Made by a program: the position numbers and the translations under genes | The notes under the pieces: generated by a model | Told to the model about the DNA's origin: nothing | Databases searched by the model: none | Seen by the model: only the letters and a program-made list of their open reading frames with translations | Source: an uncultured Armatimonadetes bacterium | Lineage (GTDB): Bacteria > Armatimonadota > UBA5829 > DTJY01 | Direction of reading: 5' to 3' | NCBI GenBank assembly: GCA_963717145.1 | Contig: OY970325.1 | Coordinates: 1,312,001 to 1,376,000, forward strand | Length of the DNA: 64,000 nt | In this document: one piece after another, positions 4,048-55,684 of the stretch | Layout: each line of letters starts with the position of its first letter | How positions within the stretch are numbered: the first letter of the stretch is position 1

Positions 4048-6255
<2,208 letters not shown>

Positions 6256-9073: not shown

Positions 9074-10431
9074 ATGATTGTTCAAAACACCCCGAGCCAA
9101 GTCGTCCTGCCGTGGATCGATCCCACGCGCGCATTCGCACAAGTGGCGGATCGGACGGGCTCGATCCTCATGGAGACCCAGCCAGGCTCCGGAGGTCGCT
9201 GGTCGATGATCTGCGCCGAGCCGTTCGCGGTCCTGGAGGGCCGGAATGGAACGGCCACACTCACCTCATCCGGCGGAACGGAATCCTACGCATCCGTCTT
9301 CGATGCCCTGCGACTCATACTCGCCGACCGCAGGGCGCTGATAGTCGCCGGGTACCTCGGGTACGAACTCCATGCCCACCTGCGAGATACGCCCATTCCC
9401 GTGCCTGATCCCGCCGAACCACTCGTGCCGGATTGCTGGCTCGGGCTCTACGACACCGCGCTCGTGTTCGATCATGATGAGCGGCGACTGGTCCTGCATC
9501 GATCCGACCGATCAACTACGTGGGACGCCGACTGGGAGCAACGGATCAGCCGTGCCGGAGAGATGGATCACAGTGCGCCACAGGGAAAGTGTTCTTCCGG
9601 CGAGCCGGTTTCCAGTTTCTCGAAGGCCGAGTACATCGATGCCGTGCGCAAGGTCAAGGGCTACATCGCATCAGGCGATATCTATCAGGCGAACCTCTCG
9701 CAGAGGTTCACGATTCCCACGGACGCGCCGCCCTGGGAGCTGTACCTCCGACTTCGCGAGTCGAACCCGGCGCCCTATGCGGCGTACCTGAACCTCGGGG
9801 GCTATCAGATCGTCAGCTCGTCACCGGAACTCTTCCTCGCATTTGACCCCACGACGTGCATCGCTGAGACGCGCCCGATCAAGGGCACGAGGCCACGGGG
9901 AGCATCCGAGCATGAAGACAGGCTGCTGGCGGACGAACTGCTGGCGAGTGAGAAAGACCAGGCTGAGAATGTGATGATCGTGGACCTCGAGCGAAATGAC
10001 CTCGGACGCGTGTGCCGATTCGGCTCGGTAGAGGTGCCGGGGCTCTTCACGCTCGAAAGCCATCCGACGGTCCACCATCTCGTTTCGACGGTCAAGGGGA
10101 CTCTTCGACCCGAGTGCGATCGAGTCGATCTGCTGATGGCGTGTTTTCCGGGAGGCTCGATCACAGGCGCCCGAAGATCCGCTCGATGGAGATCATCGCC
10201 GAGCTGGAGCCCGTGCCCCGATACGTCTACACGGGGTCGATCGGCTGGTTCGGTGCTGATGGAACGATGAACTTGAGCATAGTGATTCGAACCGCCGTCT
10301 TCAAGGACGGACTCTGCTACCTGCACGTTGGCGGCGGGATCGTGGCTGATTCCGATCCGGACATGGAATACCAGGAAACGCTCGATAAAGGGCGCGCTTT
10401 CTTCGAGGTGTTAGGATGTGCATCGATCTGA
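9074..10431 (+). CDS. pabB: Aminodeoxychorismate synthase component I; one frameshift near 10171 (probable sequencing error)
   Basis: GDIYQANLSQR, SSSPELF, PIKGT, AENVMIVDLERNDL; FPGGSITGA|PKIRSMEII is split by a missing C in a C-run. Confidence 0.88.
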
Positions 10432-22758: not shown

Positions 22759-23778
22759 TCATGGGTTCTTGGCCTGGCGGAGGGCTTCGAGGGCGGCTCT
22801 GAGGGCCTGGACACCGTCATGGCCTGACGGGAGCCCGATCAGTTCGCCCTTTCTGATGCTCTCGGCGAACAGAGTATACATCCTGTCGAACGCCTTCGAA
22901 GGCGCGCTGATCGCTCTTCGGAAGCACTCGCCCTTCGTGTAGACGCTCAGCTCCTTCCGATTCCCCCACCCCTCGATGCTGCACTGCGAATCGTGGTAGC
23001 TGATCAAGCCGTCCGTGCCGATCAGGTCGTACCGCAGATTGGCTTCATGCTGAGGAGTATTGTGGGTATATGCCCAGCCGTTCTCGTTCAGCAGCATCAC
23101 GCCGTTCTCCATCTTGCACGTTGCGATCACGTGATCGGGGTTAGGCCAATCTTCGATGTAGACGCCCTTCGCGCAGATCTCCGCGAACTCGGAGCCGGAG
23201 TAGTACCGCCCGAGGTCGAAGTAGTGGATGCCGCAGTCGACGATCGGGCCGAGGCCTTCGGTGATCAGCATCCTGTACCGGTCGTCGCCGGCCCATCGCC
23301 CACCCATCCAGTTGCCGACACATCTGATCACCTTCAACTCGCCGATTGCGCCTGAGTCGAGCAGCCGCTTCATCTCGGGATGCGGCTCGGAGAGTCGGAG
23401 TTCGAAGTTGATGGCGAACAGCTTCCCGGCCTGCTGCATCGCGTCAACCATCTCCTGCCCCTGCTCGACGGTCGGTGCGATCGGTTTCTCGCCCAATACG
23501 TGCTTCCCGGCCGCGGCGGCATCCATCACCACCTGGTGGTGGTCCGGGAGGGGAACCGCCATGCCGATCGCGTCGATGTCATCGCGGGCGAGAAGTTCGT
23601 GATAGTCCGTATATGTGCCGTCGATGCCGTACTTCTCCTTGAGTTCCGCAAGGCGATCCTCACTCAGATCGGAAACGGCAACGAGGTCGATGACGTCGGT
23701 AAGCGAGGCCAGCGCGGGCAAGTGTCCGTAGCAGGCGACCGTCCCGCACCCGATCATGCCCATCCGTACTTTCTCCAT
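22759..23778 (-). CDS. Gfo/Idh/MocA oxidoreductase
   Basis: GMIGCGTVA, AGKHVLGEKPIA, DCGIHYFD. Confidence 0.92.
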   Translation of the reverse strand: MEKVRMGMIGCGTVACYGHLPALASLTDVIDLVAVSDLSEDRLAELKEKYGIDGTYTDYHELLARDDIDAIGMAVPLPDHHQVVMDAAAAGKHVLGEKPIAPTVEQGQEMVDAMQQAGKLFAINFELRLSEPHPEMKRLLDSGAIGELKVIRCVGNWMGGRWAGDDRYRMLITEGLGPIVDCGIHYFDLGRYYSGSEFAEICAKGVYIEDWPNPDHVIATCKMENGVMLLNENGWAYTHNTPQHEANLRYDLIGTDGLISYHDSQCSIEGWGNRKELSVYTKGECFRRAISAPSKAFDRMYTLFAESIRKGELIGLPSGHDGVQALRAALEALRQAKNP

Positions 23779-23800
23779 CACAATCCTCCCACCTCCGAAT

Positions 23801-23999
23801 ACCGTAGGGACGGCGCTTCCACGCCCGCCCGCACACCGTAGGGGCGGCGCTTCTATGCCCGCCCGCACACCGTAGGGGCGGTGCTTCTATGCCCGCCCGC
23901 ACACCGTAGGGGCGGTGCTTCTATGCCCGCCCGCACACCGTAGGGGCGGCGCTTCCACGCCCGCCCGCGCCGGGAGGCCGTTGAAGGCCTCCCCTACGG
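23801..23999. repeat. Tandem array of five 34-bp GTAG-type REP units plus an inverted terminal unit
   Basis: accgtaggg(g/a)cgg(c/t)gcttc(t/c)a(t/c)gcccgcccgc(a/g)c at 23801, 23835, 23869, 23903, 23937; then gggaggccgttgaaggcctcccctacgg. Confidence 0.92.
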
Positions 24000-27089: not shown

Positions 27090-27283
27090 CAGGATGGCCG
27101 TCAGCGGGCGGCTAATGTCTATACTCACTGAGGTGACGGTTGGTGGATACCGACCCGGCCAATAGTACCAAGCTGTGCTGCCGATGCGCGGGCAGTGGAT
27201 GCAGGAGGGCCATGTAGGGACTCGTCCGACTGGTTTGTCTCCATTCACCTCCTCTCCCCCGCCCCGCATCCAGCACTAGAACA

Positions 27284-27436
27284 AAATTCGAAATTCGAAG
27301 TACGAAATTCGAAACAACTCCGAAATCTCAGACTCGAATCAACGAAAGAATCGAAACTCGAGGCAAACGGAGCTTTCGGATGTCGAAATTCGGATTTGCA
27401 GTTTGTTTCGAATTTCGCATTTCGAATTTCGAATTT
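27284..27436. repeat. Large TTCGAAA-family inverted heptamer element
   Basis: aaattcgaaattcgaagtacgaaattcgaaacaa ... ttgtttcgaatttcgcatttcgaatttcgaattt. Confidence 0.92.
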
Positions 27437-27455
27437 GCCTTTCGGGAGGCTCATC

Positions 27456-52009: not shown

Positions 52010-52039
52010 TTGACACTCGGGTTTGGGGACTGGTATCAT
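52010..52039 (+). promoter_or_regulatory. Sigma70 promoter of the ileS leader
   Basis: TTGACA-18 bp-TATCAT with extended TG. Confidence 0.75.
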
Positions 52040-52062
52040 AGGAATAGTTATTCTCGATGGGC

Positions 52063-52467
52063 AGAGGCGATGACGAGGAAGAGTACCCGCCCGGCGCAGG
52101 CCGGGAAATCCGAAACTCGAAACACGAAATTCGAATTGCGGACTTTGCGGTCAGGTTACAGAGAACCGGGTAAGCTGAGAACCGGGGCCGAGTCGCGTGG
52201 GGAATATCACCTCCGAGCCGGAGCGGCGAAAGGGAAGTCATCAGTTATCGGTAATCAGTTATCAGTAAGACCGAGACCGATCACTGATCACTGATTACCG
52301 ATCACCGAGTAGTTGCTCCCGGGCGGTTCCCGTTACAGAACCGAGGTATGCGGATCGTCCAAGTACCTGCGAAGGTCCGGGCTGTGAAGCGCGGGCGAAT
52401 CGGGGTGGTACCACGAAGGCTTATGAGCCTCTCGTCCCTGCTGTGGGGATGAGAGGCTTTTGTTTTG
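52063..52467 (+). promoter_or_regulatory. T-box riboswitch (Ile, specifier AUC)
   Basis: GCGATGA..AGGAAGAGTA stem I base; AGAGA/GCTGA distal motifs; specifier ATC at 52206-52208; T-box AATCGGGGTGGTACCACG at 52398-52415; terminator agcctctcgtccc/ggggatgagaggct + U-tract. Confidence 0.92.
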
Positions 52468-52471
52468 GGGA

Positions 52472-52534
52472 GGTTATGGATTCTGGGTTTTGGGTTATGG
52501 GGAACCCCGAAACCCAAAACCTACAACCCATAAC
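52472..52534. repeat. Inverted heptamer hairpin, TGGGTT(A/T) family
   Basis: ggttat-ggattct-gggtttt-gggttat-gggg / ccccga-aacccaa-aacctac-aacccat-aac, between the T-box terminator and the ileS RBS. Confidence 0.85.
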
Positions 52535-52553
52535 AATTCTGTGGAGGTATCGC

Positions 52554-55500
52554 ATGTTCAAAGAGGTCAAGAGCGGGTTGAGCTTCCCTGAGATGGAGCA
52601 TCGATGTGCTCGAGTTCTGGGAGGAAGGACACATATTCGACAAGCTGCGGGAGAAGAACGCCGGCCATAAGCACTGGTCGTTCATCGACGGGCCGATCAC
52701 GGCGAACAACCCGATGGGCGTTCATCACGCATGGGGCCGCACCTACAAGGACATCTTCCAGCGCTTCAAGGCGATGCAGGGGTTCGAGCAGCGATACCAG
52801 AACGGCTTCGACTGCCAGGGCCTGTGGGTGGAGGTCGAGGTCGAGAAGGAACTCGGGCTCAACTCGAAGCGGGAGATCGTCGAGTACGGGCTGGACAAGT
52901 TCGCCAAGGCATGCCGCGCTCGCGTCGAGAAGTATTCCGCCATCCAGGCCGAGCAGTCGAAGCGGCTCGGGCAGTGGATGGACTGGGACCACTCCTACTA
53001 CACGATGGATGACACCAACATCGAGCACATCTGGCATTTCCTCAAGAAGTGCCACGAGAACGGATGGCTCTACAAGGGCCAGCGCGCGATGCCGTGGTGC
53101 GCCCGATGCGGAACGTCGCTCTCCCAGCACGAGCTGATCGATTCCTACCGCGACATGACGCACACATCGGTCTTCCTCAAGCTGCCGATCAAGGAGCGCG
53201 AGGGCGAGTACATGCTGGTCTGGACGACCACTCCCTGGACTCTGACCGCGAACGTCGCACTGGCGGTCCATCCGGATCTCGACTACGCGAAGGTGAAGCA
53301 GGCCGACGGCATCCTGTATCTCTCCGCCGGAACGGTCTCGCAGGCTCGACGGCGAGTACGAAGTGCTCGGTACGGTCAAGGGCAGCGAACTCGTCGGCCT
53401 CCACTACCAGGGCCCGTTCTTCGATCTGCCCGCTCAGCAGGGGATCGATACCGCAGGTCGTCGCGTGGGACGACGTCGGTGAGGAGGAAGGCGTCGGCGT
53501 CGTCCACATCGCTCCCGGATGCGGCGCGGAGGACTACGAGCTGTCTCAGAAGCTCGGCCTGCCGGTGCTCGTTCCGATCGACGAGAACGGCTACTACTAC
53601 CCGGGATTACGGCTGGCTCGCGGAGCAAGTCGGTCGGCGAAGTCGCGCGGATGATCTTCGAGGATCTCGAGAAGAAGGGCATTCTCTACAAGACTGAGGA
53701 GTACGAGCACCGCTATCCGGTCTGCTGGAGATGCCAGGACGAACTCGTGTTCCGCCTGGTGGACGAGTGGTTCATCGCCTGCGATCACATCCGCGAGCCG
53801 ATGACGGCGAGGCGCGGAAGGTGCGCTGGGTGCCGGATTACGCGGGCAAGCGCATGGAGGACTGGCTCAACAATATGGGCGACTGGTGCATCTCCCGGAA
53901 GCGGTTCTGGGGACTGCCGCTGCCGTTCTTCAAGTGCGAGTGCGGAGAGATGACGTTCATCGGCTCGCAGAAGGAGCTTGAGGAGATGGCGGTCATCGGG
54001 CATGGAAGGACTGAAGGAACTCCATCGTCCGTGGATCGACGATGTGAAGATCAAGTGCCCGAAGTGCGGCGGCACGGCGGAGCGGATCCCCGAGGTCGGC
54101 GACTGCTGGCTCGACGCGGGAATCGTCCCCTTCTCCACACTCGGTTACCTGAACGAGGACAGGTCCTACTGGGAGAAGTGGTTCCCGGCGGAGTTCGTCG
54201 TCGAGATGCGGGAGCAGATCCGCCTGTGGTTCTACTCCATGCTCTTCATGAGCGTGACCCTGGACGGGACGAGTCGCCCTACAAGTCGGCGCTCGTCTAC
54301 GAGAAGGTCCACGACGAGCAGGGCCGACCGATGCACAAGAGCCACGGCAACGCGATCTGGTTCGACGAGGCGGTCGAGAAGATGGGCGCGGACGTCATGC
54401 GCTGGATCTACGCCGGCTCGAACATCCAGACAAATCTGAACTTCGGCTATCAGCAAGGGCGATGAGGTCGTGCGCAAGCCTGCTCACTCTCTGGAACGTT
54501 TACTCGTTCTTCGTGACCTACGCTGTGGTCGATGAGTGGAAACCTGATGGGACGCATGGGACTGATGGGACCGATGGGTCGGAGCTGGATCGGTGGATCC
54601 TGTCGCGGCTGCAATGCCCTGGTGAAAGCGACCACCGACTCGCTGGAGGAGTACGACGCAGCCGAGGTCACCCGCTCGATCGACACATTCGTGGACGATC
54701 TCTCGAACTGGTACGTCCGCCTGAGCCGCCGACGGTTCTGGAAGAGCGAGTCCGACGAGGACAAGCAGTCGGCCTACTCGACGCTCTATGAGGTGCTCGT
54801 CACGCTGACCAAGCTGCTTGCGCCGATCATGCCGTTCATGGCCGAGGAGATGTACCGCAACCTGGTGCGTCTCGGTCGACCCGAATGCGCCGGAGAGCGT
54901 CCACCTCTGCGACTGGCCGGCCGCCGATGAGTCGCTGATCGACACACGGCTGATCGAGGAAACCGACGCCGTGATGAAGGTCGTCCGGCTCGGACGGTCG
55001 GCCCGGAACGCATCGGGGATGAAGGTCCGCCAGCCGCTTGCCAAGGTGACGGTCAAGCCGTCGAGCAAGAGCGAGAGCGAAGCCGTGGTGCGCAATGAAC
55101 GACTGATCCTCGACGAGTTGAACATCAAGGGTCTGGTGTTGACCGAGGACGCGACCGGCCTGGTCGGCTACACCATCAAGCCGAACCTGCGCACCCTCGG
55201 CCCGAAGCACGGAAAGATCCTCCCAAAGATCACAATTGCGCTGGCCGAGGCGGACGGCTCAGTGATCGCGGCCAGGGTCGCCGCCGGTGAACCGTTCGAT
55301 CTGGTGGTCGCCGGGGAAACGTTGGCCCTCGACTCGAACGATGTGATCGTCGAGACGACCGCGCCGGAGAACCTCTCCTGCGCCGAGGAGTCCGCCACTG
55401 TCGTCGCAATCGACACGCAACTGACCGACGAGCTGATCCAGGAGGGCATGGTCCGCGACCTGGTGCGCCAGATCCAGAACATGCGGAAGGATTCGGAGTT

Positions 55501-55684
55501 CAACGTCGACGACCGCATCACCATCGAGTACTCCGCGACCGGCAACCTGTCGGAGGCAATCGAGGCCTGGTCGGACTACATCCGACAGGAGACGCTTGCG
55601 AATTCCCTCACGCCCGGGGACGACTCGCTCGCGAAGGTGAAGATCGCCGGCGAGGAGATCGGGCTGAGTCTCGCGAAGGCGTAG
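52554..55684 (+). CDS. ileS: Isoleucine--tRNA ligase (type 2, GVHH signature); roughly ten frameshifts, probably consensus errors
   Basis: [72 protein letters not shown] recovered across frames; Ile T-box upstream. Confidence 0.92.

Follow-up and report, generated by a model that had tools for sequence, protein, structure and literature searches.

An ileS T-box leader of an Armatimonadota bacterium with three blocks of short tandem repeats at sites that appear permissive

The ileS gene of the Armatimonadota genome under study (G000; the genomes of relatives are labeled G001 to G010, G030, and G034) was found to be preceded by a T-box leader that retains its conserved motifs while holding about 190 extra nucleotides in three blocks, each of which includes period-7 repeats. 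The leader lies within the window, the 64,000-nt stretch of DNA that was analyzed, which is part of a single 5.37-Mb contig of 60.6% G+C. Our preferred reading, to which we assign a probability of about 0.68, is that this is an ileS T-box of working type in which the repeat blocks are tolerated passengers, placed at permissive sites and older than the species. From comparison of sequences and predicted folds, we infer that the leader remains responsive to tRNA-Ile and that its blocks are neutral.

A search of 751 nt with the Rfam T-box model (RF00230) matched the leader at 47.5 bits (E 3e-9), and a whole-genome search with the same model returned the same match. Stem II, the Stem IIA/B pseudoknot, and Stem III were all aligned between Stem I and the antiterminator, with the IIA/B hairpin carrying CCGUUA (Table 1). 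The T-box sequence GGGGUGGUACCACG at 52402-52415 includes a UGGU bulge (52406-52409) complementary to the ACCA end of tRNA, and the terminator shares CUCGUCCC with the 3′ strand of the antiterminator in the model alignment, such that the two structures are mutually exclusive. One tRNA-Ile(GAT) gene ending in ACCA was found in the genome and fits both the AUC specifier and the UGGU bulge. The Stem I motifs (GA/K-turn, AG bulge, and distal loop) were kept in all 10 orthologous ileS leaders, and the IIA/B pseudoknot GGUUC/GAACC reads GGCUC/GAGCC at the same place in G006, where both sides have changed. When the whole of Stem I was folded by RNAfold, the canonical structure was not recovered (z −0.7); a helix with many non-canonical motifs would be expected to give such an outcome, and the result was given no weight as evidence.

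At the RF00230 gathering score of 93 bits the leader went unreported, its 47.5 bits being about half of the cut-off, and a window-wide scan at that score returned only a tRNA. The shortfall can be attributed to the blocks, because scores drop as leaders lengthen: leaders of 259-285 nt scored 100-112 bits, those of 304-332 nt scored 73-97 bits, and those of 377-426 nt scored 48-73 bits, with the G000 ileS leader at 382 nt; compact orthologues serve in this comparison as stand-ins for a leader edited to remove the blocks. By every feature of sequence and structure tested, the curated score excepted, the ileS leader is a member of the T-box family, and since its score is below the gathering cut-off, routine annotation would overlook it.

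Table 1. Features of the ileS leader and related elements (window coordinates unless marked as coordinates of contig C1 of G000).
Feature	Position	Strand	Basis or remark
Sigma-70-type promoter: TTGACA, 18 nt, TG-TATCAT	52010..52039	+	11/12 hexamer matches; TG before −10
T-box leader, full model length	52061..52442	+	RF00230 positions 1-219 (all 219 model positions)
Stem I with specifier loop	52067..52216	+	Sequence and model alignment
GA/K-turn motif of Stem I: GAUGA; AGUA	52069-52073; 52082-52085	+	Aligned to model
Stem I block, 55 nt, 5′ strand, between lower helix CCCGC and upper helix GCGGU	52091..52145	+	Insert states; relatives
GC hairpin of Stem I block, 5 bp	52090-52105	+	Fold
TTCGAA-rich heptamer hairpin of Stem I block	52109-52142	+	Fold
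AG bulge AGAGA; distal loop GCUGAGA (Stem I)	52160-52164; about 52173-52179	+	CAGAGA and GCUGAGA aligned to model
Specifier codon AUC (Ile), followed by A, within GAAUAUCACC	52206..52208	+	Sequence, model alignment, anchor parsing
Stem II; GAAA 52228-52231, AGUA 52308-52311	52218..52322	+	Model; closing helix kept; fold z −5.4
Stem II tip block, 71 nt: ATCAGTT/ATCGGTA units paired with GATCACT/GATTACC units	52234..52304	+	Insert, fold, relatives
Stem IIA/B pseudoknot: CGG..CCG hairpin; loop GGUUC 52325-52329 complementary to GAACC 52338-52342	52320..52342	+	Sequence, model
T-box sequence and antiterminator	52399..52438	+	Sequence, model, tRNA 3′ end
Intrinsic terminator: 16-pair stem 52425-52459, then T tract	52425..52467	+	Fold z −4.7
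Post-terminator hairpin, 62 nt: GGTTATG-type units and complement	52473..52534	+	TRF; centroid fold z −3.4
Shine-Dalgarno (SD) GGAGG 52543-52547; ileS start ATG 52554-52556	52543..52556	+	N-terminus MFKEVKSG matches orthologues
ileS (class II-type IleRS)	52554..55684	+	Only copy found
valS post-terminator hairpin	C1 1057529-1057600		7- or 8-base repeats
ilvD post-terminator hairpin	C1 1600230-1600299		7- or 8-base repeats
ilvB post-terminator hairpin	C1 3107878-3107982		7- or 8-base repeats

The extra RNA was placed by the covariance model in insert states rather than in normal stem positions, with 55 nt immediately preceding CAGAGA and 64 nt falling in the loop of Stem II. Period-7 arrays were called by TRF at 52111-52135, 52236-52268, 52276-52308, 52472-52501, and 52506-52534 (scores 30-52). 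An earlier note, made from the letters of the DNA, had described the three additions, had held that they leave the T-box hallmarks undisrupted, and had named an assignment of these stretches to normal stem positions as a refutation; the model alignment bears the note out on both points, with all hallmark motifs intact. Its heptamers GAAATCC, GAAACTC, GAAACAC, and GAAATTC in Stem I were located at 52105-52132 and continue to 52137, its ATCAGTT hairpin between GAAA and AGUA was recovered as an ATCAGTT/GATCACY hairpin, and its hairpin between the terminator and the ribosome-binding site as a GGTTATG/CCCAAAA hairpin.

The Stem I block folds as a pair of small hairpins (z −1.8, a stability equaled by 7 of 200 shuffles). 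While the distance from AGTA to AGAGA is 78 nt in this leader compared with 20-23 nt in leaders lacking the block, the 3′ strand of Stem I is of normal length (42 nt from AGAGA to the specifier, compared with 41-45 nt), and thus the block represents an extra branch on the 5′ strand. Its site is an internal loop in compact orthologues, where CCCGC is followed by GCGGGCAGGGCUAC (G003), compared with CCCGC, the 55-nt block, and then GCGGUCAGGUUAC in G000. When the blocks were examined by BLAST, the repeat part of the Stem I block was found at no fewer than 10 other loci in the genome, and its GC hairpin had no other genomic copy. The GC hairpin reads CCGGC/GCCGG in G000, CCAGC/GCUGG in G006, and CCAGG/CCUGG in G005 and G010, with two positions changed on both sides, which suggests common descent of the Stem I block and some pressure to remain paired. 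The Stem II block forms a near-perfect hairpin atop an intact closing helix (z −5.75 for the block alone). Every block has a repeat family with other copies in the genome, the BLAST similarity being at the level of arrays only (17-53 nt at 87-100%).

We also investigated the distribution of such repeats across the genome. TRF called 597 period-7 arrays with 167 canonical units, of which AACCATC was the commonest (150). Although about 80% of the genome is coding, 338 of 558 period-7 loci were intergenic, according to rough gene calls made for this analysis (3,896 genes). A stop codon lay within 20 nt in 169 of 281 cases and a start codon in 50 of 261. A pattern of three ATGGTTG units (up to two mismatches) gave 225 matches in G000 and 0 to 21 in ten family relatives, a comparison in which short-read metagenome-assembled genomes may under-assemble repeats; the reversed control of the pattern gave 0 matches. 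Heptamer arrays were also detected in frame inside genes. In the ligA open reading frame (ORF; 4084-6255), a GAAATTCG/TTTCGAA-type heptamer hairpin lies in frame at 4686-4752, within the adenylation domain of the NAD-dependent DNA ligase; the ORF stays open across the hairpin, and its match to Pfam exceeds the length of the profile by about 18 residues. A 160-nt hairpin with arms of AAATTCG/TTTCGAA arrays (27280-27440) was found directly upstream of the SD of a gene with MgtE-N and CBS domains (start 27457). The window also includes a G+C-rich tandem repeat of period 34 at 23801-23968 (4.9 copies, 94% matches, TRF score 287) that overlaps the 5′ end of an oxidoreductase ORF (22759-23868, minus strand).

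The cyanobacterial STRR heptamer repeats are 7-base tandem units of several families that are mainly intergenic and often paired into hairpins. The G000 repeats likewise have tandem units of about 7 bases, several families, and many, mainly intergenic loci; they differ from STRR in phylum and in units. Similar to REP/REPIN and MITE-type elements, the G000 repeats form hairpins, are intergenic, occur in many copies, and are tolerated in transcripts and sometimes in frame. Unlike these elements, they were not seen to have a fixed full-length consensus, terminal inverted repeats, or target duplication, and their hairpin arms are tandem arrays of variable copy number.

The leader was then compared with those of relatives, as the earlier note had proposed. 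The nearest ileS genes were 76-90% identical to that of G000, and a T-box was found upstream of ileS in 10 of 11 relatives with this ileS type (E up to 0.001). The exception was G009, which belongs to the same family and is 97% complete; its ileS is intact (locus L007), and no T-box was detected before this gene or anywhere in the genome; this lineage seems to have lost the whole of its T-box regulon control. The compact leaders of G002, G003, G007, and G034 were without any of the three blocks. G006, by contrast with these compact orthologues, has all three in the same places before an intact ileS frame of 1,048 amino acids. G001 has no Stem I block; its Stem II carries a one-armed GATCACC array and its Stem III a heptamer hairpin, and its terminator is followed by the same GGTTATG-type hairpin as in G000. 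In G005 and G010 the site of the Stem I block is occupied by a longer hairpin, and Stems II and III have inserts of unrelated sequence. Core segments were 84-93% identical between G000 and G006, compared with 64-72% for the blocks, which nevertheless still fold (z −2.3 to −6.0). By these comparisons the blocks appear to predate the species and to evolve faster than the core, yet to stay paired. The earlier note had proposed a leader colonized by three repeat families; the three repeat blocks stand, and the colonization is not fresh, as G006 shares all of the blocks and the ilvB leader two.

A search of sequencing runs for this stretch matched four metagenome DNA runs and no RNA run. Contigs of relatives from the four DNA runs were also examined; these are about 88-99% identical to the region and are not from the source organism, the runs having contained 5-7% of sampled words. 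In these contigs (i) 52088 or 52090 is joined to 52154 with 8-10 other letters, such that the Stem I block is missing; (ii) 52233 is joined to 52305 with 6-7 other letters, leaving out the Stem II block; and (iii) 52469 is joined to 52543, leaving out the post-terminator hairpin. The sides of the Stem I joints span only 27-28 letters and make these joints supporting rather than decisive, several joints being under 30 letters and singly weak. The discrete length differences from both orthologues and the contigs of close relatives argue that the blocks are more than chance. In a tree of ileS DNA, G000 was grouped with G001 and G006. At depth this tree conflicts with family labels (G030 and G034 nest in family f1), so it was not used for gains and losses, and it does not distinguish two gains of the Stem I block from a single gain followed by many losses.

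Across the family, 33 T-box matches were identified in 10 of 11 genomes, upstream of ileS (specifier AUC), valS (GUC), ilvB (GUC), ilvD (CUC), and one probable aspS. Segment lengths were cut at conserved anchors defined by regular expressions, by which 29 of the 33 were parsed to the T-box sequence and 4 were not. At least one oversized segment was found in 14 of the 29 parsed T-boxes, confined to Stem I, the Stem II region, and the Stem III region. From AGTA to AGAGA the baseline is 20-23 nt, and oversized segments of 70-78 nt were found in 4 of 29, namely only the ileS leaders of G000, G006, G005, and G010; from AGAGA to the specifier it is 41-47 nt, with 57 nt for ileS of G005 and G010. The Stem II region (specifier to CCGTTA, baseline 54-71 nt) was enlarged to 101-168 nt in 11 leaders and the Stem III region (CCGTTA to GGTGG, baseline 27-80 nt) to 93-147 nt in 7. 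No change in length was detected at the K-turn, specifier loop, AG bulge, or T-box bulge in the 29 parsed T-boxes. A wider scan of 80 ileS upstream regions by regular expression parsed 9 leaders of Armatimonadota type; the other 71 failed, including all those titled Chloroflexota. The confinement of oversized segments to recurring sites fits the earlier note's proposal that insertions occupy structurally neutral positions.

Taken together, these results are consistent with the following model. The sigma-70 promoter would drive a leader of about 500 nt, in which the AUC specifier of Stem I would read the GAU anticodon of tRNA-Ile and the UGGU bulge would pair with the uncharged ACCA end, stabilizing the antiterminator against a strong terminator. 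To this design three additions have been made with the conserved motifs left untouched: a two-hairpin branch in the internal loop of the Stem I 5′ strand, an extension of the Stem II tip by about 27 pairs, and a hairpin between the terminator and SD. The blocks consist of the short, mostly 7-base tandem repeats found at several hundred places in the genome. Such repeat DNA may arise or land widely, with only those copies surviving in the T-box that fall at sterically free places, namely the apical loops of stems, one internal loop, and the stretch that follows the terminator. Several points may speak against this reading. Stem I acts as a ruler between the anticodon and elbow contacts of tRNA, and a branch within it could impair tRNA binding; the GC hairpin of the Stem I block covaries in three lineages; and every one of the four G000 T-box leaders has a hairpin ahead of its SD, with hairpins of the same unit family kept in the valS and ileS spacers of relatives, which hints that the blocks are not neutral. 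The sub-threshold Rfam score and the broken reading of ileS in this assembly also count against it, and the site statistics depend on the regular-expression anchors and the rough gene calls.

The sites might instead be set by the mechanism of insertion or expansion, with hairpin tips or T tracts favored (e.g., by slippage seeded locally), rather than by selection. We regard this alternative as unlikely, though it retains more weight than any other. It would account for the recurrence of sites, including the 11 of 29 oversized Stem II regions, as well as for the strong positional bias of arrays toward stop codons genome-wide; in addition, the post-terminator units of valS resemble by eye the tail of the adjoining terminator (GGAGCTTG beside repeated GGAGTGNT), and in ileS TTTTGG stands beside GGTTTTG. 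However, unrelated, non-heptamer inserts were found at the same sites in G005, G010, and G008, arrays also occur in frame inside genes, the GC hairpin of Stem I is without another genomic copy, and no candidate mechanism or enzyme was identified. That different kinds of sequence are found at the same sites in different lineages favors a selective filter over homing by one element.

The sister T-box leaders of G000 were compared with regard to the hairpin that follows the terminator. The ilvB leader (L003 1411-1829, minus strand) was 82% identical to the ileS leader (window 52061-52553) over its whole length; the two share the Stem II hairpin (83% identity over 70 nt) and the post-terminator hairpin, and differ in the specifier (GUC compared with AUC) and in the Stem I block. 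As paralogous leaders within the genome are as similar as orthologous leaders between genomes, the Stem II and post-terminator blocks were inherited or copied between leaders rather than gained twice, and the likeness of the ilvB and ileS leaders suggests recent duplication or gene conversion between leaders. A stable repeat hairpin was found between the terminator and SD in four of four T-box leaders of G000 (z −3.4 for ileS, −4.1 for valS, −5.9 for ilvD, and −5.2 for ilvB), a count that is taken as a lead only, as it was made after the pattern was seen and the leaders are related, those of ileS and ilvB not being independent. TRF called arrays in three of the four. The arms of the valS and ilvD hairpins are composed of GGAGU-type (SD-like) units and their complement. 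As a base rate, a 6-8-mer array accounted for 14 nt or more of the 100 nt upstream in 281 of 3,896 roughly called genes, and an array of 6-8-mers was present in none of the three control riboswitch leaders of G000 (TPP and two cobalamin); FMN and SAM-I riboswitches were not found in the genome, which limited the control set to these three. Relatives carry hairpins of the same unit family at the corresponding site, upstream of valS in G001, G004, and G006 and upstream of ileS in G001 and G006.

These observations bear on a second alternative, that the repeat hairpins have been taken into service as RNase III sites or 5′ stabilizers, with the Stem I branch adding a contact to tRNA. The low base rate, the controls, the GGAGT-type valS spacer hairpins at one place in four genomes, the covarying GC hairpin, and an intact RNase III gene in the genome all lean toward it. 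Precedents are provided by the RNase III cut in the terminator of the S. aureus met T-box, which controls mRNA decay (PMC7913692), and by the functional insertion stem Sa of staphylococcal glyS (PMC9177973), as described in the available parts of these articles. Since the RNase III gene is intact and such cleavage has a precedent, processing at the long hairpin duplexes is a testable idea. On balance we consider this service doubtful, because compact orthologues and close relatives manage without any block, the terminator-to-SD spacers are unstructured in G002, G003, G005, G008, and G010, the repeat units differ in sequence between leaders, and the same repeat classes are mostly located just after stop codons and also inside coding frames. 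A more specific form, in which the post-terminator hairpin is a selected module (e.g., an RNase III entry site or 5′ stabilizer) and the Stem I branch a new four-way-junction form that still measures tRNA, is slightly more doubtful again; if true, every mRNA under T-box control in this Armatimonadota clade would gain a further, post-transcriptional level of regulation.

The state of ileS itself raises the question of whether the leader could be a decaying relic before a pseudogene, with repeats piling up in the absence of selection. The sub-threshold Rfam score and about 13 frameshifting indels in ileS would agree with such decay; alignment to three orthologues shows 12 places between 52601 and 54870 where one or two bases have been inserted and one where a single base is missing, none in homopolymers and all within ileS, with neighboring genes that look whole. 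However, this is the only ileS in a genome rated 98% complete, and in the frame of its orthologues it has 0-1 stops and 84.5% amino-acid identity, a ratio of synonymous to non-synonymous codon differences (240:161) close to that between two intact orthologues (235:143), and an ordinary branch length. With the intact ileS behind the same three blocks in G006 and the unbroken set of T-box motifs also counting against it, decay is very improbable. At 10 or more of the indel places the contigs of relatives showed a one-base gap difference (nine extra bases omitted and one missing base restored), and the window's remaining large ORFs match their Pfam profiles over the full length. As the only copy, and with no sign of relaxed selection, ileS probably carries local errors of the assembly consensus, which appear to be the most likely explanation of its frameshifts rather than pseudogene formation. 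In a separate part of the window (9074-10270), an ORF for a chorismate-binding enzyme next to a class IV aminotransferase gene ends at profile position 184 of 257 and may represent another frameshift or a truncated gene. That the blocks themselves are artifacts of long-read consensus in repeat-rich DNA is scarcely credible: the same 3 kb holds many single-base insertions resembling consensus errors, yet independent assemblies (G006, G001, and G005/G010) have blocks at the same places, the same Stem II hairpin is found in the ilvB leader elsewhere in the genome, and the arrays are genome-wide.

With tolerated passengers at permissive sites as the preferred reading, the leader can be set beside known systems. 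Canonical T-boxes (RF00230; e.g., the Bacillus tyrS and ileS leaders) have the same domains and motifs in the same order upstream of an aminoacyl-tRNA synthetase gene and likewise have a specifier matching a tRNA of the genome; the G000 leader differs from them in its added blocks, in the branch inside Stem I, and in its Armatimonadota host. A literature search found no paper on T-boxes in Armatimonadetes. Insertions in T-boxes have been described to occur in every domain with function unknown, according to the available part of a review (PMC7583486), and the S. aureus met leader also carries one (the part of PMC7913692 at hand). Similar to the G000 blocks, stem Sa and the met insertion are lineage-specific helices on a conserved core that can hide the element from standard searches; in contrast, they are conserved within the genus and have not been traced to genomic repeats (the word "repeat" occurs 0 times in the available text of PMC9177973), whereas the G000 blocks can be traced to a class of repeats found throughout the genome and differ from one close relative to the next. 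A pneumococcal BOX element separates two trp T boxes, which seem to have kept their regulatory function (Croucher et al. 2011, PMC3049150, available part); it is likewise an interspersed repeat co-transcribed with T-box leaders, but is placed between two complete T boxes, while in G000 a single T box has the repeats within its own Stems I and II. The accessible portions of the literature on T-box insertions gave no description of genomic repeats in these two stems.

Overall, the leader is a natural map of where a T-box can carry cargo rather than a new kind of regulator. Tolerance is seen at the tip of Stem II, in the Stem III region, at one internal loop within Stem I, and in the post-terminator spacer, and these permissive sites could be used to engineer T-boxes that carry tags or aptamers. 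Of most experimental worth are the Stem I branch and the post-terminator hairpins, the former, kept before an intact ileS in G006, being a ready-made test of the tRNA ruler model. Genome-wide short tandem repeats offer a concrete source for some of the unexplained lineage-specific insertions of T-boxes, and as leaders swollen by repeats fall below the Rfam cut-off, T-box regulons would be under-annotated in repeat-rich phyla.
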